Shown in pieces: positions 985-40,584 of a stretch of 64,000 nt of DNA (positions are counted from its first letter, which is position 1; every line of letters starts with the position of its first letter). A program made the position numbers and the translations under genes. The notes below the pieces were generated by a model. The model did no database searches and was not told the DNA's origin. It saw only the letters and a program-made list of their open reading frames with translations. This DNA comes from Ophelia neglecta (taxonomy: Eukaryota), in assembly GCA_965285935.1 (NCBI GenBank), contig CBDIWN010000008.1, positions 248,001 through 312,000 on the forward strand, given 5' to 3'.

Positions 985-3115
985 CTACTTAAAGTTTCCA
1001 TACTGTTCGTTCCTTGTCATATATTCCATTGCAATACAATGTAAGAAACGATATTGATCCTGTTAAGAAATGGAAGCATTCACTTAAACTGTAACTGTAA
1101 TCTTTGAATGCATGCACAAGATAATTGATTAATAAATAGCCCACTATCTTTGGACATTAACATTAATGAAAATAGAACGACATTTTGATATTGTAGATTA
1201 GTGTATCAATTATAGAAAAGCAATGTTTGTCACAATTCCGAAAACTCTTACCGGCAATGCACATATTAGTTATAGTACTTACCAAAGTATTGACAAATTG
1301 TTGTCGGTGTAGGGAAACAACTCTGACAGCAAGAAAGACGTCCACCTCGCGGTCTTCTTTCATCTTCTCTAACATATAATGTGCTGCGCATATCATTCCA
1401 CTGTGGCTGGCACCGTCTCTGTAATATACAAGTTAGTAATGGCATGTTGATTAAGCCCGCGAGATGCTTTAAGGAGATTAATACTTACCTCTATCTCCTT
1501 AAGCCGTATGGAGAAACTAGGCGATGAGAGGTGAGATGAACGTTTAGAGGGACATATGAAAGCGCTAACAGCTGATTTATTAAACAGCCCCCCCCCCCCA
1601 CCAACCCCTTATTAAGCGTCAGTGTCTCACTAATAACGAACAAGAGTAGTGGTATATATGCTAAAAAGTGTGGAGCATCCTTCAATAATTCATATTTTGT
1701 ATGTCACTAAGATTTTACAAATTACAGCTGCCTATTTATAAATGGGTGTTTGGCAACAAACCCCTCATTCGCGCTTTTTTTGAATCCTAAAGAGAAGCAT
1801 TTGTCTAGAGAATAACATAAAGATGATCCTAGTTTATTCATGTGTTATTTGTGTTTTTTACGAAAAAAATTCACGTGTTTATAACTTACTTGCATTGGAT
1901 AACAATTTTTCCAGTTTCAGATTGTCGTTGCCACTTCTGTAGTCGTTCTAACAGATTTAAAGTGTCATCCATGTTTGGCAGATTCTGTTTATCTGGCCGT
2001 TGCTTGAACAAAATATGGCGGACGCTCACTGCCTTGTTCTGGAACTAAGAATTTAACCAATAATATTAAAATATCGTTGTTGTATTTGAGAATATGCTTT
2101 TCTATACATTTAATAGTTGACATATCAATATAAATAAAATAAAATCCAGAGACTAACACTTGATGAAAAAGACACGGTGAACTTTCTTTCTTCTATGGCA
2201 TCTTTTTCGTCTTCGTCTTTTGAATCGATGCGCACCTCAAGATCACCAAACTTCCTAACGTCACCTTGTTGAAATTCCCCGTAATTGGGACAACCCTGAT
2301 GATAGAAATTGATGATAAAAACAAGTTTGTATATTTTGACGGGTTTAAAATTGCCGACCTAACTTCTGGCTTTTCGTATTGCACTATTGGTTTTATTGAA
2401 ACACGGCCTCCTACCTCGGAGTTTGGGGACGTTGTGTCCACAGTTATCACAGTGTGGCAGTTTTGTTCATACACCAAACGCCAGAAGTCAACAACAGTAG
2501 CAGGGAGTGGCAGCTGTGTTGCAATGAATGTCTTCTCCGCAAGAAAACTCTAATAAATCGTGGAGTAAACGAAATGCATTCCATCAATATGTGGCTTTAA
2601 GTTCAAGAAAATTCGAAAAATACAAAAGAAAGAAAAAAATGTTATCAATTGAGCATCATCCAATAAATCACTATTAAAAGAACATGATTAACGGAAAATA
2701 TGTCTAGAAATATACCATGCGTTAATAATCATTCAGCAAAGTATAAGGGAGATTGATGATATGGTGAAAAAGCTGAATGTAAGTTGTATTCATTTAAACC
2801 AATACACACGTTGACCACAACGGCATTGATATAGTCATTGGTCCCCGGACATCTTGTAGATAGATACAACCTGTGTTTATTGTCTATTGAAGAAAACAAA
2901 AGAAAACAGTTGTTTGAGTTAACCAATCTGATTGTGCATTGGTTCCATATACAGACATATAAGATTAGTTATATTATCATAACCCATGCAGTGTCTATTA
3001 TCTTAAACTATGTACCTGGCACTATATCAGCATCTCGATTCTTCCGCCTGTTTTCCTTACTCAGAGCACTAAGTTTGTCATCTGACTCCTTGTGTTGTTT
3101 CATTTTGGAAAGAAT
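985..3115 (-). other. PTP domain D2 exons of copy 1 (degenerate pseudophosphatase)
   Basis: KNRD, DYINAV, FIATQLP and DFWRLVYE are present. WPD is replaced by RPD and the signature reads IQCKDGASHSG, lacking the essential Arg. Confidence 0.85.
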
Positions 3116-6100
3116 CTGAAATGTAAGTCATTCCATAATTATCAACGCCTCACAATGATACAAAAGGGCTACTTTTCAGATAGGCGGAGTATATGGAAGC
3201 AAAAACCAAACAAAACTGTTCACAGTGATCGAAAATGGCTAATGCCAAACTGACTTCATTATCGATTCCCTCTGTTAGCAAAGTAACGTAAATGGTGAGC
3301 ATGCCGTTTGTTGCTGTCATCATAGAAAGTGCCATATTGTTATAATTATAGTGTTTGCCATCATCTATAAACCACATGCGATTTTAACACTTTTGTTTAA
3401 CATATCACACATTATCATATTGGTTAATGAGTGTTTACATGAAAAAGATGCATGTCTTTAGATAATTAATACAAGATTACATCATTGGAATAAATAGTTT
3501 TTCACAACAAATATTAATAAACTAAAATAGTATCTATAAATTATTAATTGCTGAAATGGTGCAACAAAACCACTATGTATAAAATGCTTACTTTGAATTG
3601 TTCTTCGATGGGTATTTCGTTGGAATATTCGTTTCCGCCGACCAGTTGTGTGAACCTCTCAGGATACACGTTACATGGAATGGCCGTCTGTCCTTGCTGG
3701 TATGCATCTAACAGTGCCTCGTAGATAAATATATATTGTGGCTGAAAGCAGAAGAAATATAACTTAATATATCTATTGTGTAGGAGTCAGTAATAATTAG
3801 ATATGTAGACCAAATTGATAATTAATTATGAAAATTGAGTATCCTGATACAAGAGCCATCGTATGGAGATTTATAATATAACTATTTGCCTTTCCTCCTA
3901 AATATATATCAAAAGTAATGTTGAAATGTCACGAATGCACATAATTAATGAGGCGTTTAGGATAAGGCGTTGATAATCAAAGTTTAGTCGGCATATGGGT
4001 TTACAAACTCCACATCCGATTTTCTATAATCTTTGACCTTAGCTGAACAAGATAATCTTTTTGGTAAAAACAGAGTTCATGTAAAAGCTTAATATAGCCT
4101 TAATGGAGTATTATCTCACGAAAAATTCTTACCAATGTCTGAACCATTTCCATACGTTCATTTCTGAGCTGAGTTACCAGTTTGAAGACATCTACTTTTC
4201 CTTCTCTTTTCATTTGGTCCAGGAGATAGTCCAGCGCAATCAATGTCCCTGTGCGGCCTATTCCAGCACTGGGAGGGATAAAGGAAATATGCTCATGGTG
4301 ACATTATTGTACCTTGATAAATAAACTAGCATTATAATGCCTTAGAACATTGTAAGCTTCAAATATGTTACTTTACCTGCAATGCACAATAATTGGCCCT
4401 GTTCCCTCTCCGTCAAATGATCTCAGCTTTCGTCTGAATTGCAAAAGAGGGAATACGTGTTCTGGGGCCTCCTTGTCTGGCCAGGAGAGGAACTGCAGGT
4501 GCTTTACTGTCCTCCGTTCATTCTACAATATGCAAATCATGGATGGGTTTTCTTATTTTAATTCTAATTGTGTTGATCGACCTCAAACGCTGACATGCTC
4601 TCGTTAAGTGGCGCCACAAAACGAAACCTTGAAGGAATCGGAACATTTTAATTTTTTGTTTTAAATTTTTCAATCCAAGAAAAAATCAGACAAAAATAAT
4701 TGCACCATATCTGATTTTGCATTACTATATTACATAACTTAGCATAGACCAGGTTATATCAAGTAATTGAAGTTATTACAATTGAAAATCTGTGATCATG
4801 TTCTATAAATACAGAATTCGACCAGAAAAAAGCAGGTCATGATTTATCGATCACCTTGGTATTTAGTGTATGTGTATTGTCTTTCAACTGTCGGTCAGCT
4901 ATGAATTATATTTTACATGCCAGTTACCAGATTACATGTGTTGCACAAGCAGAAAGCAGTTATTCTCAATACAGGCATTTCGTTTCCAGATATTTAACAA
5001 AGTTAATCGAAAACGCAAACAGCTCCTCCCGCAAGAGTTGAATAGTACGTCAAATGTGTAACAAAGATTCTGCGTGTCGATGAAGTATTTGTGACACAAG
5101 CCTGCCCTAGTTATCAGGTATATTTAGTAGATAAATATCGGTTTGTTATACACTATGGTGATGAAATTTTAGATGAAGCATTTGACAGTTGCTTTACGTT
5201 GCGAAAGCTGTCATAACCAAGTGACTTAATGTGCTGCCAACCTGCTGGAATAGGCAGTTAAACAACAACAACAACAACACACAGCGTTATGGTATGAACT
5301 ATGTGACATGTGGTAATCTAGATGTATAAATGTAGAAACGAAAATAAGAAAAATGCGAGTGGAAAGCCGGCAGACAAAGCCAAGTCACTAGTTGAGAACA
5401 GTCCGTTAAATCGTTACGAAATCATCAGGCACTAGCAGCCGAGTCGAGGCAGCAACAATTAAAATTAAGAAACGCACAAACACACTTCCTGACATATTTA
5501 ATAAGCAAAATATGCTTTAAAGACCTTCACTCATTTCTGTCTTATACTGGTTAAAAGTATTATATGTACCAACATGCAGTTCACAATATGATATAACTAA
5601 GAGGAAATGTTGTTCACGTGTTTCTTAACGTGTTTCGTTACATTCTGCGATTTTTCGTAGTTATTAATCTTCTAATCAATACGGGCCATACCACAATGTA
5701 TAGAAGAATGAATAATTTCCTTTCACTTAGGGCCAAATGTATCATATGAAATTTAAGATAACTGTAAAGAAAAATCTTACCCCTTTCCGTATTGTGATGA
5801 GTGTCAGAGTGTAGTCGGCATATGAATCACAGGCCGTGGTAGTCACTGTAATATCATCATAGGTTACAACCTCACCAACTGCCTCGGGCCAATACTGGGC
5901 ACACTTTGTCTGTTTTGAATAAGACAAATGTCAATTGTCAATGCTTAAGAAGACACGCTCTAATGACACTCAATACGTCACAAAAAAACAAAAACAATAC
6001 AATTCAACAATATATTTTATTTGGTTCACACTGACAAACCTTGGTGAGTTCTTTTATTCGTGTTGCCATAACAATACGATTTGACTCTAACTGCCAGACC

Positions 6101-9100
6101 ATCGACCAGAACGCGTACACTGTGTGCGGTTTCGGTCCTGAAAAGAAACAATTAGAAAAAGTTAATAATCGTTTGCTAGATGATAGAGTTCTTTTTCTTA
6201 ATCTTACTTAGTTGCTATTTAGATTTTTAAAGACATCATTATTATAAGTACTTATAGTATTGTTTCTGTTTCAATGTTCGAATAATTTCTGATTTAATTA
6301 TAAACCGACCTATAACTTCGTGAAACCGTAATTGTTTTTGTGACATATAATCCATGTCCGAATACCTATATGCGTTTGTGCGAGTTTTGTTTACTCACCT
6401 TGTGTGGCCACGTAATGGTTTTTCTTATTAGGATAACCCTAAAAAAGATACGTCACTTCGACTGTGCTTTAGATTATAAATGACTTTACGGTTTGAGATA
6501 TATCAAAAACCGGTAACATGTGGGTATATATACCAACCTTCAGTAAAACCATTTCAATATAGTAATCATATTTACCGTTATGAAGCTGGCATTGATGTAG
6601 TCAGAGTTATCAATAGTAGTTTCCAGAACCACTCGAGAAAAGTCGTCTATAAAAATGTAACTCATCATGTAACATATGAATAAAATACTGTAAATTAATA
6701 TCTTTTAGCAAACTGCAAACTTTCGCAAATTTGTATATAAACGCGAAAATATCAACTAGCAAAAATTTCCTGTTTGCGATTCCCTTACGCAACCCTTCTT
6801 TTAAGCAGTAATCAGGCTCTATCGTCGCCCAGCCAGGTCGGTAATGCAGGGTGAAATATGACTCGGGAAATTTTCTGGTTCCCTTAGACACCTTGTTTCT
6901 TAGTATACTTTTGCTGTCATTGAGTACATTTTACCATTTTACGTTCTCAGACGTGCGTTTTTAAATATGTAGGTTATAATCAAAGAAAACATACAGGCCC
7001 TGATATTCTTGAATCGATCCCTAGCTATGTTTTGTGTCTGCTTGGCCACGTCACATGGGCTCAGTTCTCCTGTAGGCACGTCCTACAACAACAGATAAAA
7101 TTATTAATGGAAAAAAAGCATGAAAAGAAATATGAAAACAGGACAAACAACTGGGACGCGTCTGTATGATAAACGAGAGAACACAAATCATATATCATAG
7201 CAGCGATGCAAAATTAGGTAGCTGGAAAGAACCAATATGTTTTTAATTCGGACCACCCAACTTTAAGTTATCACAATCGGCGATCGTCTTAAAATGAAGG
7301 GAAAGAATATTGGTACATTATCTTATTTTAGTTTCAAATACTGCGCAGTAATTAATAAAGATCTATTTTCGTGGCTAATGTTGGTTTCTTTACAGCCGCC
7401 AACATATAAAGCATAAATGACCATTTATTGAATCCCGCAGTGTATATACAATGAACGTTTTCGGTATACCGTGTATGCATGAACCATTTTTTCTTCAATA
7501 CGCATGTGTGACCCAATTAGTCAATGCCACAACTGTGGTAGGTCTAAAAAATGCAGCGGGATAAGACACCAAGGTTGCTTACACGGTGGATCAACCGATG
7601 TCATGAACTGTTTGAAGTTTAATTACAACATAAAGAAAGTAATAGATACATCAATTCCAAAGGATAAACATAAAGGACGCCTAATTTACTCAATGTCTTA
7701 ATTGGAATTAAATGAAGCATAACTCGTAACTTATTGTACCATCATGATCAATGCGACCGGCTTTATTATAGATATTTAATGTAGTTGTTATAGAGTTTTG
7801 AAATTACGAAAATGTGACCTAATGTAGATAGCTTTGTCAGTTAAGTCATTTTATTAGAAAATCTTCATAAAACACAACTTAAATAGGCAGTACTTGTGCA
7901 TGACATAACCAAAATGACAAACATGACATTTTTAGTCGACCTACGTAAGAGCCAGATTTAGGGTGACATGCTAGGCGGGCACAATTTAACTTGAAAATGT
8001 TCTTTCGTAACGCGGTTATAAAATACCAGGTTGGCGATACGTATGTTTGACACTTCCCGGGTTTAAGCACGCATGCCCTCACAAAGTACCCCAGCATGCA
8101 GCGCGGTCTTCCGCTTCACGCCAGATGCCACAAATATCAATAATCGCTCGAGCATACGCGATAGTAATAATCATGGACATTTTGGAGAATGTATATATCT
8201 AATCTAAGGAACTAGTCCAGAAGGCTTAATTCAATACCACACACTTTACTTAAGAATGTCATCACATTATCGATACATCTTAATTATGTTTGAAAATTAG
8301 TTATGCTGCCAAAGGCCTTTTTGTATTCTAGAAATGCAGATACCTTCAATTCAAAAAAAGAAGAAAAAACTTCACTGGCTGGTTACTAACTTCAAATTCC
8401 CTTTTCAGACCATCCTTAGTGTATTTCCGTGCCCCAATATATACTTCTAGATCATCTTCTTTAACACAGGTTCCATCGTCATGATTTTTTGTAGCTGGGA
8501 AGTCATAGTATATCGTATTAGGGTTCTCATCTACGTTACCTCCAAAGCATGGATTGTCTACTTCCTGCGTTTCAGCGAGTTCATTGACAGGTCCTTTGGC
8601 ATGGTAAAAAAGAACATTAGTCGCATACTGTCCATAGCACCTGACATGCTTTCTAAAAATGACACTATACAGGGGAGCGAGTATTTGAATAGATATGATT
8701 CCATGTGGAAAAAACGGGAGAAGGTACCCGGCACACAAAACAATATCATTTATCAAGAAAAGTCCATCAATTTGGCCCGGTACAATCAGGAACCGAAAGC
8801 CATAGGCATGGAATTACTTACCGGAACGCCTTCTAAATGACGAATAGCTTCTTCCATTTGGAGGTATTTCCTCCATTTTAGCATTAGCATTATCTTTCGC
8901 TTTCGTGCGTCGTTTCCTATTATGAATTTTCAAACACATCGTTTTGATTGAGGAACGTGAGTAGCGCTCGTAAGGATTTTTATTACTCATTAATGACAAC
9001 TAAGCAGACTCAATGATAATGCTTACAAAAATCATAATGGGATATAATGCCTCTGAGAAGTTGATAATTTCTTCATTCACCAACCTAAGAAAAACGGCAA

Positions 9101-12100
9101 GAACTACCACCAGGATGGCTATAGTCAGGAACGCTGCTATTGATCCTGTAATAGGACCGATCAAGCCTAACGAGACAGAGGGACCGACGCTAGGTTCTGG
9201 AAGATTGCACAATTACGTGAAATGGTCATTGGATAAGCAGCTGTAATGGTGTTGTTTGCATCCGAAGCACAATAAATAGATAGTATAGAGCATAGGCATA
9301 TAAAGGCAATGTCACTGTTTTGCGGGCCACGAATTCCCAAGTTAAAAAAAACTGTAGCTGTTGTAGTAAATATTACTTATGGCGACAACAAATATGAAAT
9401 TATATGTGACAAGGCAATATTATCGACTTTTTTTATATTGACAGCAAAATAGTTGAGTTTGATACTGAATTTAAAGTCAAAACCTTGTTCCTGTGTACCT
9501 AATGTAGTAGCGAAGACAGTCATGTTTTTGAGACAGTCTTCTTTTATTCCGTTCAATTGTCGATAAATCTTTAATATGATCCGGTATGTAGAATTGACGG
9601 CCAGATTTGTAAATGTTTTGTCATATTTCAAGGCAATATTATCTTCTTTGATTTCTATTGTAAGCGATTCAATGTCTACCCCATTTTCCTCTGAAACGGC
9701 GATTTTGTAGCCAAATACAGCCGCCGTATTTAATGTAATGCCTTTCACATGTGTCCATTCAATGGTTATCCTGTCAGTTTGAATATTGATAATGCTGACT
9801 TTGTTTATGTCCGGATACTCAACATAGGCTGTTCATAAAAAAGCAATAAGATAATTATTTTTCATTAATACATAAACATTATTGTGATTACGTCATTAGA
9901 GAAATATTGATCAAAATTATGTCTCAGTTCCATTTTTACTGATTATACTTACCTATAGATTGGTTACAGTAATCTCCAGAGTACCATGTATCGTACGGTG
10001 GTAGCTGACAACCGTTACTACATGCTCCACTGTACTGATGACAAGTCGTTATGTTATCTACAGCCTCACAGTTACTACTACATGGATGATCGCAGGTTTT
10101 ACCATAAAAACCACCTTGACAGACGCACGCCCCGCTATACCTGTCACATCCGGGGTTACTATGCTCACTAGAACACTGATTATTACAGGTATTATTGCAG
10201 AATTCGCCATAAGAACCGTCGTTACAGCCAAAATTACAAATTCCACTCCGCTCGTTGCAAGACCCAGAGCTAGTGACTACATGACAACCAGTGCTACAGT
10301 TGTTTTGACACTGGTCTCCAAAGTAAGGGTCCTGACAGCCACTCGTGCAACGCCCATCAGTGACAGTACATGACCGATTAGACTCCTGATCAATAAGGCA
10401 ATTCGCACTACACTGGTAGTTACAGTTTATACCGAAATGGTTTTTGTCACATTCTGTAACGTAGATTATAATCATAGACTGGCGGGATTTCTGGAAAATG
10501 GCCCTGTATAAGGTTCTAGAGGCATTTTGGGGTACAAGTTGGGAACCAGACTTTTTAACATAATTTAAGCATGCTGAATCCGATAAACCCGGTTCCCAAG
10601 CGAAATTTTGAGTTTTTGACCATCTAATTTGCATAAACAAAATGGCGGTCAAATTGTCAATTTTTAACTTTTCTTGAATCGTATTATATGGTTACGCTGT
10701 AACCAGACAAGTAAAAAGGACAAACAAAGTGTCTATACTACTTTATTAAAGGTCATAACATACATTTCAGACATTTCTAAAGCAATTAGTGCTAAATAAT
10801 ATTCATAAATATGCAAATTAGTTGCCGCCATTACAGAACCATCAATTTTCTCCGATATCTGGGGGGATTGCGTAGGCCTACACCTGCGTACGTCATAACT
10901 GACGTCATTGCGTATGCAGCGCCATAGCTGTCGTCATTTCTAGTTACTCCAACTAGATAGCCGATTGATAACGGATTGTCTTAATGCTGTTTTGCTATCG
11001 CAGTTTGATTTAAGGCTGTTTAGTGTGAGTGAAACTCCATTCACTTTTATACCTATCAAACAGTTTTGTGCTTTTCTTTGCTTTCCTTGTCTTGTCTGTA
11101 ATTTTCTCTTTCTTATGTTCTCTTCATTATTTGACATTGACTCTTTAGTGTAAGTGAAACTCCATTCACTCCCTTCTTGCACAGCGGTATTGCTATCATT
11201 TCGTGGTGGGGGGATTGCGTAGGCCTACACCAGAGTTTCGTCTTCTGTGAATGATGGATCCAGTAGTTACCTTGAAGAGGTCATCACCTGTAGATTGCAG
11301 CCTGTGTATTTTCTGCCAAACTCCTTCAGTCGGTGGTATTCTGAGTAAAGCAAGTGACCATGGACTCGCAACAGCCAAGCATGCTGCCAGTATCAGAAGA
11401 AAACTCAGGGACTCTAAGAACATCGTTGTGATCGACCGTCTTGAGAATGTTTTGAATTCTGATGAAAAACAATCTATTGTTTGGCACAAAATGTGCTATG
11501 CTCATTTCACGGACAAAAGTAAAATTGAACGTTTGCAGAAGCCACAGGCAGTGGATTCTAAACAAGTAGGAGCCAGTTGCAGCAGTAGTGGGAATAGACA
11601 TTCATTGCGAAAGTGTGTGGAACCAGTAAATTGGAAGCTATGCATTTTCTGTCAAACTGTTTCGAAGGCACGATTGACATCAGTCATGACAAAACAACTG
11701 AGTGATCAGATCATTCAAGCTTCCTCTCTCGACTACAAAATTGGTCTTCGATTGGCTGGAGTGATTGACTTAATTGCGGCTGAAGCCAAATACCACTTGA
11801 CCTGTCTCCGTTTATTCACGAGATCTACCAATAAAAATAACCAGGACTCGCAAAACTACGTCAGCCCTATGTAGATGGACTCTTTCATATAATCTGAGGT
11901 CTCACATTGCAGATGAAACGTATGCCATGTACAATCACTGTCGTGGCAGTACACGTGTTCACAATGAAGCTACCAAATCACGACAAAAGCGGGACAACGA
12001 TGATGAGATGTCATTGCTCACGGCTTTTATGGGATTTGGAGTTTTTGCGTCAGTTTCGCCAGATTCCCTGCAAAATCTCGTCACAAAAGACCTAGCAACA

Positions 12101-15100
12101 GAAGAGATCCAACACTCGTTACTGTGTGCCAAGGAACTGGGACAAGAACAAGTTAACACATTCGTTGCAGACAGAATGATTGTGCCTGAAGAAGGTAACA
12201 AACCAGATGTCACAATCCATGCGTCCTTACAACGGAATAATGCAAAAACATTTGCATCTCTGTATGATGTGGTCAAAGACAGTAAAGCCAAAGAGACCAA
12301 AATCATCTTCAAGGCAGATAGAAACGTCTTACAACGCCTTGTAACCGCTTATGAAGCAGGTCGTCCTGTTGACTTGCCAGCTGTCCTAAAGCACGAGCTT
12401 CTGCCAGTTCCTATATCCATTGCCGAGATGAACGGTGCGCTCCGGACCGGAAATAAATCCGTACTGCTAGAGAAGTTGACTGAAGACATAACTTGCCCTG
12501 AAGCTATTGAACTTCACGACACGTCATCTTGCCTCATTATTGATGGACAGGCACTAGTGGTTTCTTTGGGAAGGCCTGATAATGCCGTGACCTTTGGGGA
12601 TTTGGCCGATACATACGTAAGAGCAGTATTGAGGGCAGGTTATAAGTATCAACGGATAGACATCGTATTTGACAGATACAGAAAAGAGACAATCAAGGGT
12701 GGTACCAGAACACGACGCACAAAATTAGCTCGACCAATCAGACGGCCTGTGGAAAGTCGTGATGTGCCTCTTCCAAAGAACTGGACAAACTTCCTGTCGC
12801 TTCCTGATAATAAAGCGGATCTTGCACATTTCCTGTCAGAGGAACTGTGCATTCAGGCACCTGATGATAAGGAGATTGTAGTTGCCGGGGGATTCCGAGA
12901 TGAACTCGCAGTGAGGTCGTCAAAGACATGCACCGATTTGGCTCAATTGAAAGCCACACACGAAGAAGCAGACACTAGATTGGTGTTACATGCTGTGCAC
13001 AGCCAGTTCAATACAGTTGTTGTGTCATCAAGGGACACTGATGTTCTTGTGCTTTTGGTTTCTCACTTCCCCCGTGTACAATGTGAACACCTCTGGATGT
13101 TATCCGGTACCAGCAAGAAACGGCAATATATACCCATTGATGCGGTTTTCAATAACCTACCAACAGATTCAGCACCACATCTGTTGCCATTTCATGCATT
13201 AACCGGATGCGACTCCACATCCTACTTTGCAAATCACACAAAAAGGTCCTCATGGAAAATGTTCATAGAGCACCATCATTTACTCAACAACTTGGGAATC
13301 GGTGACCTCACAGAGGAGACCATTCTATCGTCAGAAAAGTTTGTCTGCAGAATATATGGTGTGCACAAAACAGACTCGGTTGATGCAGCAAGACATGTAC
13401 TGTTCTCCAAAACTGGAAAACCAGAAGCATTGTCCCCGACGAGTGATGCTCTCCGCTTCCATTTGATGCGTGTACACTACCAAACAATGGTTTGGAGAAA
13501 TGCTCACTGTGGTGTACCTGAGCTTCCGGCGCCTGTAAATATGGGATGGAAACATGGAGATTCAGGTCTACAGCCGATACTGATGTCATTGAGCCCAATC
13601 CCCGGAAGTTGCCTGGAAATGATTTCGTGTGCATGCCAGAAGCAATGCAAGACACGTCATTGCAAATGTCGCAAGTCTGGGCTACGTTGCACAGCAATGT
13701 GTGCATGTCACCAACAGATTGATGACCAAACTCCCTATTGTATGAACACTGACTAGCAACACTTATTCAACCAGACGAAAGGATTTCGAGGATTTTAACT
13801 GAGGATATTTTGCGTGAGGATATTGTGATTTGCGACTACTAATTTGCATATTTATGAGTGTTGTGTACACCTAATTACTTTAGATCTTAATTGCTTTTAT
13901 AATTTTCTTTAACCATCAAAACATAGGTATAGACACTTCATTCGTTATGTTTGGTCGCCTATTTACACAGATATCTGAGAAACTTGTTGGTTCTGTAATG
14001 GCGGCAACTAATTTGCATATTTATGAATATTATTTAGCACTAATTGCTTTAGAAATGTCTGAAATGTATGTTATGACCTTTAATAAAGTAGTATAGACAC
14101 TTTGTTTGTCCTTTTTACTTGTCTGGTTACAGCGTAACCATATAATACGATTCAAGAAAAGTAAAAAATTGACAATTTGACCGCCATTTTGTTTATGCAA
14201 ATTAGATGGTCAAAAACTAAAAATTTCGCTTGGAAACCGGGTTTATCGGATTCAGCATTCTTAAATTATGTTAAAAAGTCTGGTTCCCAACTTGTACCCC
14301 AAAATGCCCCTAAAATGTACATTTTCCAGAAATCCCACTAGTCTATCAGTAAGTGAACATTTGTATTGGTTTACCTTGAAACTGGATGTTACTGCTAAGA
14401 CATTGTGTATTATATAATCTGCAGTGAAAAGTGAAATGATTTTTTTAAGGTTAAATCAGTAATGGGCCTACCTTGGCAGTCCGGGTACTTTGGGTAGTTC
14501 TTGTCGCATAAACCGCAGCCAATAACGGGATCGCACGACTTGCATCGGTTTATATCACACACTAGAATAGCAGGTGAATAGTTAATCAAACGGTTTGTAA
14601 TGGGGCTTATCTTTATAAACAACTTTAGTTAATCCCATTTACCCGTTTTGACACTTAATTGTCGACCATTGCCAGAATAAAACCGAAGTAGTTACATTGG
14701 GTAGAATTCATGTTCAGGTGTGCGTTTGCATTTGTTTAACATAATCTATTATCTAAATATTGATAATATGTCACGGCGTTACTCTCAGAGGTGCCAACAA
14801 GGTGTGGAAATGTATCCCGTATGCAGCCACTATCTATTCGAAATAGACATAATCTATTCCGGTTTTAACATACCAATAGGGATGTATGCGTGAACTATCA
14901 CCTCACACAGGCCAAGGTACTGGACTTCATACCCGTCTGTATTTCTGATAATGGTGACGTATCTGCCGCTGAGGGGCGAGTCACAATTTATTGTGTCGCT
15001 TTCTGCTTCGGGAACGACTCCTGTATAATTCTTACAGAGACTTGTTAAATCACCGTCTGTCTCGAAACCAACTCCAAGGCGAAAATTACCGGTACGATCT

Positions 15101-18100
15101 GTGAAATGGTATTCCTGGTTTTGTATAAGGCCAAAGTGTGCATTATCATAAGTTTATGTAGACATATATGTAAGTAGCTCATCATTGAATATCAAGCTGG
15201 TATTTCGTAAAACTAATCAGAGCTTTCGATCGAACAATTTTCTTAGCGATGTTTACACGAGTGGATGACGTTTTTATGATATTTCTAAATAGAATCAATT
15301 CCAATAAATTTAATTGAAAATTTAATTACATAAATTCCTGTTATTCCAGTTTATAAACAGGAAATATCTCTTTACCTTTCCACCACATATTCACATCGTA
15401 CGTTAAGTGCGCTTGATAAGCACCGTAGCTAGCAATTTAAGCAACAAAAGAATCGGCCACGCGATGGTTTCCCGCAACTGTTTTTATATTTAATTTGTAT
15501 CCCGTACTCAAGACAAAATTTCATAAGCCCAGATTGCATTTGCCTTCGATCTGTTTATTAAATGAGAACTAATACCCAAGTGACGTTTATTATTGTTAAA
15601 TCCTAAAATATATTAGATATTTAAGTGGCAATACTACTGTTAGTCTATTGGTCAACAGTATACACATAAAGTACAATTTGGAGTTTAATTTTTTTCCCAT
15701 GTGAACAGCGTAAGAGAGAAGAAAACAATCACGTATCAATAATGATGTGATTAATGCAACCATTATGCGTAGATGTTTCAGGCAGATGTTTCATATTTGT
15801 CTCTAGATCTACCAGTAATTTTTCATTTTCTTACTGTAAGATGGAGAATGCGCTCTGTTTAAGATGGTGACACTAACAACTGTGTAGTTATCCTCTAGAT
15901 CGACGTACCACCAGGCTCTCTTCCCAGGCCCAGCATCAGGATGTGCACATTTCGCTATCCATGTAGAATTTTTGCCATCGACGGCCAGATCCGCGGTTAA
16001 ACCATCATATGTTCCGCTTTGTTTTGCCGGCCTTCCCTTCGCTATATTACCTGTTAATACAAAATACTGATAAAACAGGCTGGTCAGGGATCCTTTAATA
16101 CTATGCTATCGTAAATCATGAAATCACGTTTTTAGTATAAACTTTATCTTTACTCTGGAACACTTATGAGAATAGTAACTACTTGATGTCTCAATGTTTC
16201 ACATAAAGACTGCAACAGTTCATTACATGAATGAGTGGACAAATATATCACTGGAATTGAGAAACACCAAAGGATTATGAAAGAACTTGACGGCTTAAAC
16301 TTAAACACTAAATAAGGATTTAATCCAAGTGAATGTTTTTTTAGATGTCGGGTATCATCATTCCGGCATTATATTAAAAGAACAACCTCAGAAGCTCTTG
16401 CAGGCTCTATGATTCCGGGACCACTAATATAAACAGACATGATCTGTCGATGCCTATTACATAAACCTTTCTATTGTAGGGCATAAATATGTATTCGCAT
16501 TTTACGCCGGTGTGACCGGGGAGGAAGTTGAGGCATTATTTGATAGGCTAGAGTTAGAAAAAGTGCAGAATGGATGCAAACATTGTTTGGGACATGTCGA
16601 TCCCCCCCCCAACCCCACCCTCATCCCTGCCCGTGCCCCACCCCAAACCCCTTCCCCCACCCCGATAATAATAATTTAACTTGTCATTAGAAATTTACTT
16701 TATATTATTAAATGAGGACTATGGAGTTTTTGTTTTGGCCTACATAAATAAAATCCTGAACCTTAGCTAGTCACAGCCATAGTGTACCTCGTTTTTTCTT
16801 TGTAAATGTTGTGCGAAATGACGTAATAGTTACATAAAATTTGATTAGTACTCAGTATAACACTTTCAAAGATACTCTATGTTGACAGTTTTAAATGCTT
16901 CCAAATGAATATTAACAGAAAGTTTTACCGAGGTTACACCCAGGCCCGTCTCTCCGTATGATGGCAGGGTCATCCCATTCACATTCACCTCCATTGATAC
17001 AATCTCCTGTCGTCTGATTACAACCATTGGTACACAGACAGGGAAATACACAGCCAGTAGTATTCCCAAACCTACACAGACCTGAGGGAAAAAGTCGAGG
17101 GCAACATTTATTTGTTGGAATATTAGACGAAATTTTCGCACTTTTTCGCGTATCCGGTAATTATTTAACTCCGATATAAACGTTATTTGAGTACCCTGAG
17201 TGGAAGGTCCGCCCGGTTTACTTAACCTATCCCAAATCTGTGTGTCCCACAATCTTGAAACACAAGGATTTTAAGTCCGGCGTTCTAGAAATTCTAGTAT
17301 GTTTGGAATCAGGTCACGAAATCCTGGTTTGTTACGTCCGGGGACACCAAGACATAAACCCTATGGTATTAAACGTGACTTATCAAATGCACTAGTATCT
17401 TGTCATTCTGACTATGCACGCATAAAAACAGAAATATACCACTGGCTCTCTGATATGTGCACGCCAGTACCACATGCAAAACAGCCACCTCCCCTTCGCT
17501 TCTTATGACTGAATGCTGTTAAAGCCTTCATCATTTCTAATAAATTAGTTAATTTAGTTATTACATTTTGTTAGCACTACTATGAAGTATGCGTTTTAGA
17601 TATGAAATAATTTGTATTCTCCGCATTGGTCAAAACATAATTCTATTTGAAATTATCAGGCGTTATCTCTCTTATACTCTTAAATCTCCTTGTTCATAGG
17701 AGTTTGTTTGCAAACACATATTATTTTGGAGATATAACCATATATCGGCTTTTACTGTCAAAAATTATGTTTCATGATGGCTAAATCGTGTTATATTTAA
17801 AGGAGTTAAAAGTTTTTATATCCATTTGCTGCTGATTTATCGATGGAAAAGAAGTTTAAACCCAATAATTAAAAGCAGCTCCTTCATATGTGCCATTTTA
17901 TCCGCAATATAATAGAATCCTCTGAGCTAAAATGTTATGAAATGCGGTACTTGCCTACTTCAAATACAAAGCGAGGTTCCTTAGCCATGCAGTTCAAACA
18001 TATAAAGCGATTTATACCAGGTGTATTCAGGCCCCATGTGTGTATAGCCTACAGACATGCAAACAATCCGGGACTAACGAATGCTCCTATGGACGCGCTT

Positions 18101-24854: not shown

Positions 24855-27800
24855 TTATCTCTTGGCGCCCTCTTGCTGGTCTATTTCCTCATAATCATTA
24901 TTTGTATTTAGTTGTTCGTACATTGGATTTCCCTCCTCAGTCAGATTAGCTGTAAAACATAATAAAACATTCCTAAATCCACACTTCACACTTTCATAAA
25001 TCATGGACATGTACACGGAACAAATTTCCAAATGAAAAATTAATGACAATGCCCATATTGCAATATGAAGAACCGCCAGAATATATTTGTACTTTAGGGA
25101 TAACCAAGACACACGCTCAGCCCATATTTCAAATCGCCTATATGACGATACGAAAGAGTTGTTTAATGTGATAACAGGACATTTCTCGTCCACATGTAAT
25201 TCACAGGTTGTCAACACCATTATATTAAGGTATAAGGGTATTAACTAAGTCTTGTATTTCCTCAATATGTCACATGATAAGGACACCATGTGTGTTAAAT
25301 ATGTGCTTATTTGGTCTAACAACGATTAGCCGTAGATCGAAGAGGCAGAAAAACCAGATTATTAAACCAAAGCTAATATGTTTTTTTAGCTCTCACCATA
25401 GCCGGCATGTTCCGGGGACGGTTTCTCATATACGTTGTATTCGGATAATTCAACTTCCTGTGTGGCAGGAACCTGGTCTGGATTTTGTTGCGATAATTCG
25501 TTCGTAAAAAGTTTCACCTGTCGTACCCTGTATACAAGAAAACACATGATCTGAGAATGCATAAAGAGTATTAGAGCAAATATTTGCACCCAACACTACA
25601 GTCAGTCACTACATAGCTATCTATCATATCTAATATATCTACTAGACTGGACGTAGAGACATTTGGACTAATGTACACAAACGTTTCAAATATTGTTTTA
25701 AATAAAAAAAGGAATTTGCCAAATTGCCTTAAGGAAAATAACAAGAAACCTTCCATTTTAGACGTCACTTACTTGACTATAAGACAACCAATGACGGTGG
25801 CAACAGTGGCAACTATTGCAACAATTCCTATGACGATTCCTGTCAATGCGCCCGGTGACAGAGACATAGTTTGCCTTGGTTTAAGGAGATTAGCTACATT
25901 TGAAATTATATCACGTCAAATAATGATACATTTACATGGCTTCAAATCTCCCCGGACATGTATTGACACATATATCCCTGCTTATAATGTAATTTTCCTA
26001 TTGACCAAATACTAGCATACTGTATACATACTAGCGGCAAATGTGAATGCCCCTTAATATACCTACTGGTAAGCTGATATCAAATAGAAGCGCGGGGCTA
26101 GCCTGCTATAATATACCCTACATTGTACTCTACAAAGGGATTTGTGCACCATTAAAGATATTTTACTGTATGCCAATTATTGTCCGATGACATATTTTCA
26201 AAGCATTGATTTAACTATATTCAAGATCAAAAGAAATAATTTGATTCACATTAATGTCATAACTCTGTAGCTATATTTAAAGGAAAGAGAGTCGATTAAG
26301 TATCTAAAATTCAGACACCACTTATTATGATATCATTATCTAAAGACAATGTAACGTATAGTCTACATTGGCAATAAGAGTATCATGACGTTTCGGCGAC
26401 ATTGCTAGCAAAGATAGTTTAATTAGTTTAACAATGCAATTAAATTCAATAACCTTGATTTTGTGCAGCCAAAGTAGTAGCGAACTCAGTCGTGTTTTTG
26501 AGACAGTCTTCTTTTATTCCGTTCAATTGTCGATAAATCTTTAATATGATCCGGTATGTAGAATTGACGGCCAGATTTGTCAATGTTTTGTCATACTTCA
26601 TAGCAATATTATCTTCTTTGATTTCTATTGTAAGCGATTCAATTTCTGCCCCATTTGCCTCTGAAACGGTGATTTTGTAGCCAAATACAGCCGCTGTATT
26701 TAATGGAATAGCTTTCACGTGTGTCCATTCTATGGTTATCCTGTCAGCTTGAACATCGGTAATGCTGACCTTGTTTATGTCCGGATACTCAACATAGGCT
26801 GTTCAAATAAAAAAGCAAAAAGTAATATTTTTCATTAATACATAAACATTATTGTGATTACTTTTATTAGATAATATTGATCATAAGCAATAAAACTGAT
26901 TTTACATACCTATAGACTGATTACAATGATCTCCAGCGTACCATGTTTTGTACGGAGGCAGATGACAACCGTTACTACATGCTCCACTGTCTTGATGACA
27001 AGTCGTTATGTTATCAACAGCCTTACAGTTACTACTACATAGTTGGTCGCAGGTTTTACCGTAATAACCACTGTGACAGACGCACGCCCCGCTATACCTG
27101 TCACATCCGGGGTTACTATGCTCACCAGAACACTGATTATTACAGGTATTATTGCAGAATTCGCCATAAGAACCATCGTTACAGCCAAAATTACAAATTC
27201 CACTCCGCTGGCTGCAAGAACCAGAGCTAGTGACTACATGACAACCAGTGCTACAGTTTTTCTGACACTGGTCTCCAAAGTAAGGGTCCTGACAGCCACT
27301 CGTGCAACGCCCATCAGTGACAGAACATGACCGAGCATTAGACCCCTGACCAATAAGGCAATTCATACTACATTGGTAGTTACAGTTTATACCGAAATGG
27401 TTTTTGTCACATTCTGTAACGTAGATTATAATCAGTAAGTGAACATTTGTATTGGTTTACCTTGAAACTGGATGTTACTGCTAAGGCATTGTGTATTATA
27501 TAATCTGCAGTGAAAAGTGAAATGATTTGTTAAATGTTAAAACAGTAATGAGCTTACCTTGGCAGTCCGGGTACTTTGGGTAGTTCTCGGGGCATGTACT
27601 GCAGCCAATCATGGGATCGCATGACTGGCATCGGTTTCTATCACAAACTAGAATAACAGGTGAATAGTTAACAAAAATAATGGGCCTTATCTTTTAACAG
27701 AACTAAATCTCAATTAATCGCTTTCACTCTTAATTTTCTTCCCGTGCAAGCCTAAGATCCAAGTAATTACAGTGGGTTGACGTCAAGTTCAGGAGTGAGT

Positions 27801-30800
27801 CTGTATTTGTGAATCACCATCTATAATCTGACTATTGATTTATTAATTTAGAACATTACTTTCAATAGTGCCAACAAGGAGTGGGTGCGTTGGTAAATGT
27901 ATCTCTTATGCAGCAACTATCTATTCAAAATGGCCACAGTCCAATTCAGAAACATACATTCAAAGATGAAAATGCGTTCGGGTTTTAACATACCAACAGG
28001 TTTGTATCCGTGAACTATCACCTCACACAGGTTAAGGTACTGCACTTCATCCCCGCCTGCATTTCTGATAATGGTGACGTATCTGCCGATGACGGGCGAG
28101 TAACAATATATTGTGTCGCTTTCTGCTTCGGGAATAACTCCTGTATAATTCTTACAGAGACTTGTTAAATCACCGTCTGTCACGGAACCAACTCCAAGGC
28201 GAAAATAACCGGTACGTTCTGTGAAAAGGTATTCCTGGTATTGTATAAGGCCAAAGTGTGCATTATCACAAGTTTGTGTAGACATATATGTAAATAGCTC
28301 ATCATTGAATATTAAGCTGGAATTTCGTAAAACTAATTAGAGCTTCCGATCGAACAATTTTCTTAGCGATGTTTACACGAGTGGATGACGTTTTAATTAA
28401 TGATATTTCTAAATAGAATCAATTCCAATAAAATTAATTGAAAATTTAATTACATAAATTCCTGTTATTCCTGTTTATAAACAGGAAATACCTCTTTACC
28501 TTTCCACCACATATTCACAACGTATGTTAAGTGCGTTAAGCACCGTAGCAAACAATTTGAAAAAACAAAAGAATCGGCCTCGCGATGGTTTCCCCGCAAC
28601 TGTTTTTGTATTTTATTTGTATACCGTACTCAAGGCAAACTTTCATATGACTAGTTTGCACTTGCCTTCAATCTGTTCATTAAATGAAAGCTCGAACCCA
28701 AGTTACGTATATTATGTTATAATCCGAAAATATATTAGATATTTAAGTAACAATACTAGCACTGGTAGCCTATTGGTGAACAGCATACACATGAAGTACA
28801 ATTTGGAGTTTATTTTTTGTCCCATGTGAACAGCGTGGGATAAAAGAAAACAATCGCGCATTAGTAATGATGTGATTAATGCTATCATCATGCGTAGATG
28901 TTTCGGTAGATGTTTCATATTTGTCTCTAGATCTACCAGTAATTTTTCATTTTCTTACTGTAAGATGGAGAATGGTCTCTGTTTAAGATGGTGACACTAA
29001 CAACTGTGTAGATATCCTTTAGATCGACGTACCACCAGGCTCTCTTCCCATCTCCAGCATCGGGATGTGCACAATTCGCTATCCATGTAGAATTTTTGCC
29101 ATCGACAGCCAGATCCGCGGTTAAATCACCATATTTTCCGCTTTGATTTGCCGGTCTTCCCTTCGCTATATTACCTGTTAATACAAAATACTGATAAAAC
29201 AGGCTGGTCAGGGATCCTTTAATACTATGCTATCGTAAATGATGAAATCACGTTTTTAGTATAAACTTTATCTTTACTCTGGAACACTTATGAGAATAGT
29301 AACTACTTGATGTCTCAATGTTTCACATAAAGACTGCAACAGTTCATTACATGAATGAGTGGACAAATATATCACTGGAATTGAGAAACACCAAAGGATT
29401 ATGAAAGAACTTGACGGCTTAAACTTAAACACTAAATAAGGATTTAATCCAAGTGAATGTTTTTTAGATGTCGGGTATCATCATTCCGGCATTATATTAA
29501 AAGAACAACCTCAGAGGCTCTTGCAGCCTCTATGATTCCGGGCCCACTAATATAAACAGACATGATCTGTCGATGCTTATTACACAAACCTTTCTATTGT
29601 AGGGCATAAATATGTATTCGCATTTTACGCCGGTGTGACCGGGGAGGAAGTTGAGGCATTATTTGATAGGCTAGAGTTAGGAATAGTGCAGGATGTATGC
29701 AAACATTGTTTCGGACATGTCGATCCCCCCCCCCCCCCAGCCCCACCCCCATCCCTGCCCGTGCCCCACCCCAAACCCCTTTCCCCACGCCCATAATAAT
29801 AATTTAACTTGTCATTAGAAATTTACTTTATATTATTAAAATGAGGACTATGGAGTTTTTGTTTTGGCCCACATAAATAAAATCCTGAACCTTAGCTTGT
29901 CACAGCGATAGTATACCTCAGGGGATTGTTTCTTTGTAAATGTTGTGCGAAATGACGTAATAGTTACAAAAAAATTGATTAGTACTCAGTATAACACTTT
30001 TAAAGATACTCTATGTTGACAGTTTTAAATGCTTCCAAATGAATATTAACAGAAAGTTTTACCGAGGTTACACCCAGGCCCGTCTCTCCGTATGATGGAA
30101 GGGTCATCCCATTCACATTCACCTCCATCGATACAATCTCCTGTCATCTGATCACAACCCTTGGTACAGTGACAGGGAAATACACAGCCAGTAGTATTCC
30201 CAAACCTACACAGACCTGAGGGAAAAAGTCGAGGGCAACATTTATTTGTTGGAATATTAGACGAAACTTTCGCACTTTTTCGCGTATCCGGTAATTATTT
30301 AACACCGATATAAACGTTATTTGATTACCCTGAGTGGAAGGTCCGCCCGGTTTACTTAACCTATCCGAAATCTGTGAGTCCCACAATCTTGAAACACAAG
30401 GATTTTAAGTCCAGCGTTCTAAAAATTCTAGTATGTTTGGAATCAGTTCACGAAATCCTGGTTTATTACGTCCGGGGACACCAAGACATAAAACCCTATG
30501 GTATTAAACGTGACTGATTAAATACACCAGTATCTCGTCATTCTGACTATGCACGCATGCTCAAGATAATTACAGAGGCTTTTAATGAATTTTATATAAA
30601 TGTAGGGCCCTCCTTGGCAAGCAAGATTCCCAGAAATGATAGGAACCCTCTTTCCTATATCAACTCTTCCATAACTGAATCCATTTGTTTAGAAAAGGTT
30701 ACCCCTGAAGAAATTACTAAAATTAGTATGTCTTTCAAACATAAAAGTCCTGGTTGGGATAATATACATGCTAAGGTAGTAAAGAATTCGTATTTGCATT

Positions 30801-33800
30801 TTCTCCCTGTGCTTACTCACATTTGCAATTTATCTCTATCTAAGGGCAATTTCCCTGATGAAATGAAAAAAGCCAAAGTTATACCACTATACAAAGGTGA
30901 TAGTTCAACAAAAATTTCCAATTATAGACCTGTATCTGTACTGCCTCTGTTTTCAAAAATTCTTGAACGTTTAATGTATAATAGAATCATATCCTTTATA
31001 AACAAACATGATATCTTGTATAAATATCAGTTTGGGTTTAGGGAAAAGCATGGCACAAATCTTTCTCTTATGTTGCTTGTAGATAAATTAATTAATGCTT
31101 TGGATAATGGGGACAAAGCAATTGGAGTTTCTTGGATTTTTCGTAGGCATTCGATACAGTGAATCATGCAATACTATTGAGCAAATTATTTAAATATGGA
31201 ATACGTGGTATATCCTATGAATGGATTCAAAGTTATTTGTCCAAACGTACCCAGTTTCTATCATATGATAATGAGAATTCTAGGGTCCAATTTATTACTT
31301 GTGGTATCCCTCAGGGGTCAATTCTAGGATCACTTTTATTTATATTATATGTAAACGACATCTCAAGTGTATCAGAAATTATATTTCCTGTGTTATTCGC
31401 AGATGAAACAAATGTCTTTATTACTGGCAAGAGTATCAACAAAATGGTTGAGAGTATGAACACTGAATTGAAGAAAATTGTAATTTGGTTAGAAGTTAAT
31501 AAGCTATCCCTCAATATTAAAAAAACTCATTAGATGGTGTTCAGTTATAAACGGTTGAGTATGCCAGACAATTGTAATTAATTTATAGGTGGTGAAACTG
31601 TTCAAAAAGTGAATTCGACAAAGTTCCTGTTTTTTTTTATAGATTCGACCTTGTCTTGGTCTGACCATGTTAATATGATCAAAAAGAAAATAAGTAAAGG
31701 CCTAGGGATAATTTGTAGGGCAAAGAAATTGCTTCACAAATCAACTCTTAAAACTTTGTATAATACATTTATACTTCCATATTTTATGTATTGTATTGAG
31801 GTGTGGGAGGGAGCTACTCAGGAAATCTTGAATCCTCTTGTCAAGCTGCAAAAGAAAATCTTAAGAGTGGTATCTTACTCATCATACAGGGCAAGTACTG
31901 GCCCTATATTCCAGGAATTAAAACTTTTGAACTTGTTCAGTATATACAAGTACAAAATATTATTGTTCATGTATAAAGTTCACAATAATCTATTGCCAGT
32001 GATCTTTAAGGATCTATTCTGTAAAAATAGTGACTTTCATGCATATGAGACCCGTCGTTCTAACCTGTTGCGTGTGCCTAAATATAATTTAGCAGCTTCC
32101 CAGAAGGGTGTATGCTATCAGGGTGTTGTTATCTGGAACATAATATCAGCCTCTTTAGTGCCTGACATAAAAATTTCATCATTTAAACAGAATGTAAAGG
32201 CCTTTCTTCTTGTACATGGTGATTTGTGACATAATACTACTTTTTTACTGTCCTTACTTTGTCATACCAGTTCTTTGGTGTATGCATAAGATATTACATA
32301 TAGTGTTTTTTTTTCTTTTTTTTGGGGGGGGGGGGTGGAGGGATATTTCCTTTATTATGTTATATTAATGTTGTTGTTTATTCCTAGTTAAATTTCGTCT
32401 TTTTTTTCTCTGCACATTGTATGGTGAAACATTAATAATTTAGTAGTTATATCTGATGTGGGGGTACATACACCAGTGTGGTGTCCTTCTCCCTTTGTCA
32501 TGAAATGTCATTAGGCTACTGGTATATGATTGTATATCATTTGTACATGTCATAGTTGTTTCTTTTCATAGCAATAAATTCAATTCAATTGAAAAACAGA
32601 AATATACCACTGGCTCTCTGATATGTGCACGCCAGACATGCAAAACAGCTACCTCGCCTTCGCTTCTTATGACTGAAGGCTGTTAAAGCCTTCATCATTA
32701 CTAATAAATTAGTTAATTTAGTTATTACATTTTGTTAGCACTACTATGACGTATGCGTTTTAGATATGAAATAATTTGTATTTCTCCGCATTGGTCAAAA
32801 CATAATTCTATTTGGAATTATCAGGCGTTATCTCTCTTATACTCTTAAATCTCCTTGTTCATAGAAGTTTGTTTACAAACACATATTATTCTGGAGATAT
32901 AACCATATATCGGCTTTTACTGTCAAAAATTCTGTTTCAAGATGGCTAAATCGTGTTATATTTAAAGGAGTTAAAAGTTTTTATATCCATTTGCTGCTGA
33001 TTTATCAATGGAAAAGAAGTTAAAACCCAATAATTAAAAGCAGTTCCTTCATATGTGCCATTTTATCCGCAATATAATAGAATCCTCTGAGCTAAAATGT
33101 TATGAAATGCGGTACTTGCCTACTTCAAATACAAAGCGAGGTTCCTTAGCCATGCAGTTCAAACATATAAAGCGATTTATACCAGGTGTATTCAGGCCCC
33201 GTGTGTGTATAGCCTACAGACATGCAAACAATCCGGGACTAACGAATGCTCCTATGGACGCGCTTGGGTAAGTGCGGGATCTAGAGATTACCAGGGGTCT
33301 CTGGCGGGTCTAGATGCAGTCAGACCCCTTGAGGTTTTCAGAGCCCCTTGGCGGATCTAGAGGTAGTAGGTGCCATTTGGCGGATTGATAGGTCATTGGA
33401 GTTCCCCGGCGGATCTAGAGACTGTCAGAGTCACTGGCGGAAGCATGGGTCTTCCGACACCAAGATGATGAAGTTCTGACAGAGACATTTCATAGATCCC
33501 GATAGCGTTATTAGCTTTTAAATAAATACAAACGCTTCTTTTTGGGACTTGATACTAATACAAGTCTTTCCTGAATTGTGCCCGCACCTCCCACAACCAC
33601 TCCAAACCCCCGCGCCGTTTTCAACTAGTGGGAAGCATCCGGCCCTGGATTCGAATCAGGTCTACGACGCACTGGTTTACATGCAATATTAATATTAATG
33701 TATGACTTTAGATTCCAAGGGCGGTGATAGGAAAATTTAATGTGTAATTCATTGGAACGGACACCTTAATATGTTATTAGTGGTGTTGCTAATTCATTAA

Positions 33801-34179
33801 TGCCCTGATAATAATGTTTGACAAGCAATGTGCCGACGTGTACAGGTCGTCTTTGTCTTGTGTCACGATTTTGGTGGTAACTTGTGAACATATAAAGTTG
33901 ACACCACGACGGCAACTGATTTTAAAAGCATTCGTGACCAAAAAAGTCACAAGTGTGCTTCAGATGTTTTCTTTCCATAATAATCACTTTTTAACTTTAC
34001 GGGTTAACAATAAGTTAAACAACTAGGAATACTCAATACTGCCGCGGCCAACAATCCGGCGATCGAGTAATACCAATAAGTTCATAAAAAGAACATATCT
34101 ACTAACCTGTCTGAGCAGTAACTCTTGTAAGGAAAACACTTGAACTGACCAGCAAACAAATGTAAATGTTAGGAGACAT
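24855..34179 (-). CDS. F-type lectin/EGF/FN3 single-pass receptor with short tyrosine-motif (ITAM/NPxY) tail (copy 2; 10 exons, ~650 aa, intact)
   Basis: Exons: 34179-34107 (signal peptide), 30215-30063, 29174-28959, 28218-27994, 27647-27558, 27413-26910, 26798-26454, 25893-25773 (TM GALTGIVIGIVAIVATVATVIGCLIV), 25527-25397, 24949-24855 (stop). All GT-AG with consistent phases, 1953 nt open. Tail: ...EYNVYEKPSPEHAGYANLTEEGNPMYEQLNTNNDYEEIDQQEGAKR. Confidence 0.88.
30559..32591 (+). mobile_element. 5'-truncated CR1/L2-group LINE in intron 1 of copy 2
   Basis: RT motifs YRPVSVLPLFSKILE, QFGFR, AFD, GIPQGSILG, LFADET and WLEVNKLSLN, spread over three broken ORFs (30557-32229). 3' end is AATAAA followed by TTCAA repeats. 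The empty site in copy 1 (~17417-17435, gcacgcat|aaaaacagaaat) shows no TSD. Confidence 0.88.
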
Positions 34180-39172: not shown

Positions 39173-39174
39173 AT

Positions 39175-40560: not shown

Positions 40561-40584
40561 GCAGTCAAGCCTCCAATAACCAGA

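Follow-up and report, generated by a model that had tools for sequence, protein, structure and literature searches.

Do receptor genes that signal through different tails exchange their outer parts? The question is raised by a stretch of 64,000 nucleotides from Ophelia neglecta (the window; contig C16, 248001-312000), which holds three copies of a receptor gene, all on the minus strand. Their exon order is the same: Cys-rich, two lectin exons (F5/8 type C), Cys-rich, EGF-like, FN3 and transmembrane (TM). Behind this common ectodomain, copy 1 has a phosphatase tail, while copies 2 and 3 have short ones (Table 1). A reading of the letters alone had proposed that the ectodomains are exchanged among genes with different tails, as known for Siglec-5/14 and Siglec-11/16. 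When the whole gene family is considered, differentiation, recombination tests, linkage decay, conversion tracts and tree topology all support the proposal: the ectodomains very probably are exchanged between phosphatase-tailed (P) and short-tailed (S) genes.

Table 1. Features of the window (window positions; P, phosphatase tail; S, short tail)
Feature	Position	Strand	Remarks
Copy 1, phosphatase tail	1890..17081	-	22 predicted exons, first Cys-rich exon to phosphatase domain 2 (D2)
Copy 1, one further D2 exon	near 1290-1420	-	
Copy 1, phosphatase D1 WPD loop and catalytic motif	4133..4522	-	over two exons
Copy 1, TM exon	9085..9196	-	phase 1 to phase 2
Copy 1, FN3 exon	9484..9828	-	PF00041, E 2.9e-4, under the curated cut-off
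Switch point (copy 1 coordinates)	9500..9509	-	nine S genes: P-type FN3 to 9509, short-tail type from 9500
Copy 1, EGF-like exon, short form	9953..10453	-	228 nt shorter than the common form
DNA transposon, 3.9 kb, in copy 1 intron	10475..14345	.	inverted ends ~388 bp, 3-bp target duplication
Copy 1, lectin domain, two exons	15835-16050 + 14874-15098	-	span 14874..16050
Copy 2, short tail	24855..30215	-	six ectodomain exons intact
Copy 2, ITAM-like YxxL-x7-YxxL, then YEEI	24880..25400	-	intron splits motif; predicted splice
Copy 2, tail exons	25397-25527, and 24949 to stop	-	
Copy 2, TM exon	25773-25893	-	
Copy 2, FN3 exon	26454..26798	-	P-type up to 26479, short-tail type from 26470 to donor
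Copy 2, tract of EGF end and intron 6	26810..26970	-	limits approximate; matches the fusion gene at C16:235 kb
Copy 2, 5' part	28100..34600	-	copy 1 mostly the nearest family member, 91-98%
Orphan duplicate, short-tail exons and 3' flank	49815..52163	-	
Copy 3, short tail	54020..60730	-	long EGF exon, FN3 of the older short-tail type

Chaining the predicted exons of copy 1 yields 1132 codons free of stops, in which Pfam recognizes F5/8C, fn3 and Y_phosphatase. The first lectin exon matches PF00754 with an E value of 6.6e-7, the Atlas matches of the FN3 exon are fn3 clusters, and the EGF_laminin call in the family's ectodomain is weak and below cut-off. On reading of the predicted exons the Q loop is present; in place of the usual KNRY, copy 1 has RDRF. 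Three probes upstream of the receptor gene did not find a signal peptide or first coding exon. The DNA transposon sits 21 nt from the EGF acceptor, where it may disturb splicing; its junction is also present in a contig of short-read run X3. It has a long open frame without Pfam match and is, to judge from its features, presumably Academ-like. Copy 3 is broken in a lectin exon, in the EGF exon and probably in the TM exon. The TM acceptor normally used is lost in a subgroup of short-tail genes that includes copy 2, and an acceptor 21 nt upstream preserves the frame.

The exon ends confirm the FN3 donors that had been placed at 9484 in copy 1 and 26454 in copy 2, and a three-way alignment confirms that copy 2 tracks copy 3 beyond them. 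The patchwork of the three copies is visible in the same alignment, with the trio sites clustered (61 runs versus 90 expected over 156 sites, p = 0.0002). The high identity of copies 1 and 2 does not, however, end at the donor, as had been thought; the switch lies within the exon, at 9509-9500 (26479-26470 in copy 2). The weak similarity that had been seen for some 80 bp past the donor, when judged against shuffles, holds for intron nucleotides 1-40 (p = 0.001 versus copy 2) but not for nucleotides 41-80 (p = 0.11).

With only three sequences, the agreement of two reveals no more than that the third is odd, and therefore the remainder of the family had to be brought in. Copy 2 had been said to resemble copy 1 rather than copy 3 in FN3 and in EGF-repeat number. 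The EGF part of this claim stands: a 228-nt deletion, present in 4 of 34 genes of the subfamily concerned (alpha, see below), is common to copies 1 and 2 and not found in copy 3. The FN3 part, though, merely reflects the majority state, since the sites at which copies 1 and 2 agree carry the family majority at 48 of 50 and a rare state at none, which leaves copy 3 as the odd one. Similarly, copy 1 does match copy 3 at a 13-mer in intron 6 and in the segment PPYDTWY, but this does not amount to an exchange between them: of the 14 sites in question at the EGF end and in intron 6, the shared state is that of the family majority in 12 and rare in none. Being mostly majority states, neither set of sites proves exchange between the copies that share them. 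Direct conversion between copies 1 and 3 is rejected, as they have no rare allele in common in EGF or intron 6. The pairwise donors implied earlier were in part mistaken, as some 30 further close paralogues are located beyond the window.

Direct sharing across the two tail classes is real for copies 1 and 2, from the 5' region to mid-EGF. Rare alleles common to the two number 10 over the first four exons and 11 in EGF; for copies 1 and 3 the corresponding counts are 3 and 0. Between 34.6 and 28.1 kb, a part interrupted by a LINE-like insert at ~30560-32590, most 250-bp windows of copy 2 also have copy 1 as their nearest relative; non-coding stretches of the two are 97.1%, 97.6% and, in a third case, 91.5% identical. 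The end of the EGF exon and intron 6 of copy 2 equal the neighbouring fusion gene at C16:235 kb over 95 variable sites (global p = 0.013). The pair of copies 1 and 2 is absent from the globally significant tracts of a GENECONV-like script run over 561 pairs.

By tblastn, the family comprises 67 FN3 exons, 42 in C16:1-960 kb and 25 in C7:90.40-91.10 Mb, C7 being a second contig of the assembly. The number is a floor, since slightly more lectin than FN3 exons were found and a weak match at C7:91.82 Mb was left out. The tails are tandem phosphatases in 22 cases and short and ITAM-like in 41; two genes are fusions (X) and two are unclear. P and S genes are interleaved as tandem arrays on both contigs. 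Three subfamilies can be distinguished: alpha with 36 genes, including the three copies of the window, beta with 20 and gamma with 11, none of which has a phosphatase. The statistics cover 34 of the 36 alpha genes (12 P, 20 S and 2 X, the latter counted with P), two duplicates more than 99.9% identical being left out. Lectin exons with no FN3 or tail match nearby occur at C16:464-505 kb and C7:90.93-90.94 Mb; they possibly belong to secreted or differently built members. No homologue of the FN3 exon or of lectin exon B was retrieved at E 0.001, which is weak evidence; a representative search with lectin exon A yielded mostly multi-domain proteins of 29-52% identity. None of these searches revealed a close relative.

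The ectodomains of P and S genes are practically undifferentiated. From the first Cys exon to nucleotide 120 of FN3, Fst between the classes ranges from -0.047 to 0.032 in 10 of 10 segments (all p > 0.09), and identity between tail classes equals that within a class. Fst then rises to 0.035 and 0.137 in the remaining FN3 and reaches 0.657 across the donor. Taken by themselves, C16 and C7 give values of 0.001 and -0.009. Trees agree with this picture. A single topology for the whole ectodomain would have spoken against exchange, and the AU test rejects one common clade of P genes for all 4 ectodomain segments (p from 1e-7 to 0.002); beyond the switch, the P genes form one clade with a support of 100. 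Neighbouring genes do not resemble each other more closely than other pairs do (p = 0.29 and 0.15). Exchange also extends to introns and 5' flanks.

Recombination can also be seen within exons. PHI is significant for EGF (p = 0.0005), FN3 (0.0005), lectin exon A (0.002) and intron 6 (0.028), and not significant in three of the seven segments (first Cys exon, 0.13; lectin exon B, 0.13; second Cys exon, 0.67). Within the EGF exon, r2 declines from 0.26 at 1-5 bp to 0.06 at 31-250 bp and 0.033 beyond 500 bp, the floor being 0.03; between exons it is 0.036-0.053. The decay is present in each contig by itself (p = 0.0005), so that allelic crossover does not suffice as an explanation. Globally significant tracts were detected in 10 of 561 pairs with all sites and in 7 of 561 with silent sites, four of them between tail classes in each case. 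One such P-S tract links genes of the same contig (C7:90.586/90.643 Mb); half of the tracts connect genes on different contigs, which may be alleles. The PHI and tract tests were run with our own scripts, not with the published programs.

Could the same picture arise without recombination? In a fast, star-like expansion, parallel mutation and selection might imitate it, and the alpha ectodomains are indeed all about equally divergent (85-90%). Incompatibility, however, increases with distance, and the genes hold indels and silent tracts in common; we thus consider such an expansion very improbable.

The assembly deserves equal suspicion, since haplotype switches or collapsed repeats could produce a mosaic. 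C16 is probably the second haplotype of the C7 locus, although it is possibly a separate locus. Three central genes are 99.5-99.9% identical between the contigs, which gives 3 of the 25 C7 genes a near-identical partner, and C16 contains duplicates of 24.5 kb and 9.6 kb at more than 99.9%. A haplotype switch, however, would give long near-identical blocks, and the tracts are instead short, mostly 91-98% identical and derived from many donors; blocks of 99-100% were not seen in the mosaic. Blocks of at least 98% make up 27-66% of three central 50-kb bins and less than 3% of the alpha array, where 13 of 14 C7 genes have no C16 partner above 95.5%. Moreover, the signal is kept in each contig by itself, and contigs from short reads (runs X1-X3 of one sample, too short for a whole gene) contain exact pieces of copy 2 of 115-300 bp. 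An artefact is, accordingly, hardly credible as the source of the mosaic. A few structural details may be added. The alpha arrays of the two contigs show no one-to-one alleles. C16 carries an extra inverted block (~680-940 kb) compared with C7:90.40-91.10 Mb. The segments C16:144691-193736 and 191726-221627 are tandem duplicates of 24.5 kb and ~15 kb, more than 99.9% identical, and reflect either very recent duplication or an assembly error.

Where does the exchange stop? Nine S genes, including copy 2, match the P consensus at all 10 diagnostic sites between -50 and -25 relative to the donor, and that of S at all 6 between -19 and -4. As the site at -19 is split within P, the switch falls 16-25 nt inside the FN3 exon. 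When the tree is built on the 3' part of FN3, P and S genes of beta separate into clades of their own, six alpha S genes including copy 3 group with beta S (99/92), and the nine switch-point genes fall among the P genes (99/98). We infer that FN3 originally moved with its tail and that P-type FN3 later entered S genes; the nodes that set this direction are weak (85/69, 82/10). The distal ectodomain tree looks different: P and S genes of alpha group together (100), as do 16 P and S genes of beta (99), with two beta S genes outside the beta clade. Tails of alpha and beta are 84% identical in the phosphatase exons and 71% in the short form, and within beta the FN3 of P and S genes are only 74% alike. 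Both tail classes are therefore likely to be older than the alpha/beta split. Since each subfamily's classes nevertheless share their own ectodomains, exchange would have taken place separately within alpha and within beta.

In the two fusion genes (C16:235 kb and C7:90.658 Mb), a TM exon of P type and the greater part of the exon that follows it are joined to the end of an S intron, at an identical junction. As both TM exons end in phase 2, the splice from the P-type TM exon to the S tail is predicted to be in frame. The ectodomain exons are intact in the C7 fusion; the C16 fusion has stops.

Such junctions recall a simpler history, in which unequal crossover swapped tails just a few times and birth-and-death duplication did the rest, with no continuing conversion. 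The single switch point common to nine short-tail genes, the single junction of the two fusions and ~4 kb of 5' sequence, introns included, that copies 1 and 2 share at 97% would be as expected. Single events, however, leave unexplained why trees of 34 genes for three distal segments require 10-11 changes of tail label, why linkage decays within tens of bases in a single exon and why nearest neighbours alternate every few hundred bases. We regard one-off swaps as improbable. Instead, the outer lectin-EGF-FN3 parts appear to be mosaics common to P- and S-tailed tandem genes, which repeated gene conversion and unequal crossover would keep producing, halting where homology ends near the 3' end of the FN3 exon.

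What the two tails do can so far be predicted from their motifs. The WPD loop and the catalytic motif (HCxxxxxR) are found in 22 of 22 P genes, whose phosphatase activity is thus predicted; dN/dS of the D1 exons is 0.17-0.25. Of the 43 S and X genes, 36 had tails that the script could splice, and 28 of these contain YxxL/I-x6-8-YxxL/I, one of them via a different tyrosine pair. The spacing occurs in all three subfamilies and the motif rests on a predicted splice. The ITAM consensus has an acidic residue at -3 (PMC2832619, in the part covered); here it is at -4, and for this reason we call the motif ITAM-like. Downstream of it, a YEEI-type motif is found. YEEI is a ligand of the Src SH2 domain. 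No charged TM residue was seen in the family, and inspection by eye revealed no ITIM in the juxtamembrane exons of P genes.

Such tails suggest a division of labour, in which the short tail would activate via its ITAM-like motif and the phosphatase tail would damp. Exchange would keep the ligand range of both classes matched while reshuffling the variable lectin loops. A paired on/off function of S and P receptors is slightly favoured; the short-tail genes may instead have an endocytic or decoy role. Probably, the whole is best explained as a mosaic family generated by conversion and crossover that provides matched paired immune receptors. A more far-reaching version remains doubtful: the family would be an invertebrate counterpart of the KIR/Siglec complex, wired in its own way. 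One pool of sensors would recombine freely among dozens of lectin receptors, with a built-in ITAM for "on", a built-in phosphatase for "off" and a moving boundary in FN3 by which sensors change from one to the other, and the two haplotypes of a single animal, with 25 versus 42 or more genes and three shared framework genes, would differ enough to endow individuals with repertoires of their own.

Of course, the exchange might be neutral and occur wherever homology permits, the short-tail genes being decoys or endocytic receptors and not activating partners. That introns and 5' flanks take part, that the boundary is located where homology ends and that an ectodomain exon is broken in 9 of the 34 alpha genes fits with this possibility; ITAM-like motifs, too, may be internalisation signals (PMC2832619, in the part covered). 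Yet the ITAM spacing is kept across subfamilies whose tails are just 69-71% identical, alpha and beta each retain both tail classes, and variation is focused in few segments of the lectin domain. The highest dN/dS is that of lectin exon A (0.84, CI 0.51-1.34), and in no exon does the value exceed 1; exon-wide positive selection was not detected, which counts against the reading preferred here. Neutral exchange with decoys nevertheless appears less likely to us, and matched paired receptors are the reading retained in the following.

The comparison with known systems refers to those parts of the cited papers that were covered. The Siglec analogy turned out to be apt for the evolutionary pattern and inapt for the signalling parts. 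In Siglec-5/14 and Siglec-11/16, as here, conversion homogenises the ectodomain across different tails and fusion alleles occur (PMC4042635, PMC5701461). Siglecs, however, are two-gene pairs of the Ig type, in which the first two domains are converted, inhibition is due to an ITIM and activation to DAP12 (PMC4042635, PMC5701461). The present family has dozens of genes, exchange of nearly the whole ectodomain, a phosphatase within the receptor and no charged TM residue. Membership in the Siglecs is rejected, as Pfam reports no Ig-type sialic-acid-binding domain; its output contains no Ig family at all, but F5/8C, laminin EGF (weak) and fn3. CEACAM1/CEACAM3 are closer in that the receptor itself carries the ITAM-like motif in its tail, with an intron inside the motif and the acidic residue missing, and in that conversion and recombination maintain similarity; they differ by an Ig-type ectodomain and an inhibitory partner with ITIM/ITSM and no phosphatase domain (PMC2832619). 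Of the traits of paired receptors, the family thus displays similar ectodomains across tails, recombination and clustering, but not the inhibitory ITIM. By analogy, it would resemble the vertebrate paired receptors in its working, but with a built-in phosphatase.

Among invertebrates, the fester family and FcoR of Botryllus likewise mix ectodomains and intracellular parts in clusters by intergenic recombination; their domains are different, the signalling motifs reside on a partner gene family and phosphatase tails are not described in the part covered (PMC12582321). SpTransformer of the sea urchin is a clustered immune family of ~50 mosaic genes, for which the part covered describes no two tail classes. 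The closest architecture is found in snails. In Biomphalaria, subgroups 1B and 1C of the "scavenger class F-like" genes of LG5R have this architecture with and without phosphatases (PMC13712769), and SudRes1 of B. sudanica contains MEGF/GBD RPTPs (PMC12297450). As in Ophelia neglecta, these are clustered single-pass receptors with galactose-binding/fucolectin and EGF domains, a tail that is either small or made of two phosphatase domains, loss of EGF and differences in copy number and haplotype (PMC13712769, PMC12297450). The likeness is one of architecture by description, and an FN3 domain sets the Ophelia neglecta family apart from these. In two snails, receptors of this build are located within peaks of schistosome resistance (PMC13712769, PMC12297450). 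In the main texts, as far as covered and supplements aside, exchange between tail classes is not analysed: "ITAM" has no hits and "conversion" one general mention in PMC13712769, and "conversion" has no hits in PMC12297450. Nor did a literature search, which comprised few subscription journals and no supplements, retrieve any account of ectodomain exchange between phosphatase and ITAM-like tails. For the snail receptors our findings offer a testable model: the two forms would be a matched on/off pair, with sensors kept in step by recombination, and the snail clusters should show an equal discordance of ectodomain and tail. In practice, neither orthology nor allele calls can be relied upon in clusters of this kind.

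Some neighbours of the receptor genes remain to be mentioned. Two inserts with reverse transcriptase (LINE-like) are located at 21314-22423 and 30518-32226, the latter confined to copy 2, in its 5' intron. A tandem repeat array at 38754-40561, with a unit of ~32 bp and a strong strand skew, adjoins an open frame of 360 aa without Pfam match. An intronless ankyrin-repeat gene is spread over two frames at 45015-46420 on the plus strand; by eye its C-terminus resembles a SOCS box, without a Pfam call. Five relatives of this gene lie between the receptor genes of C7, three of them with open stretches of 518-524 aa.
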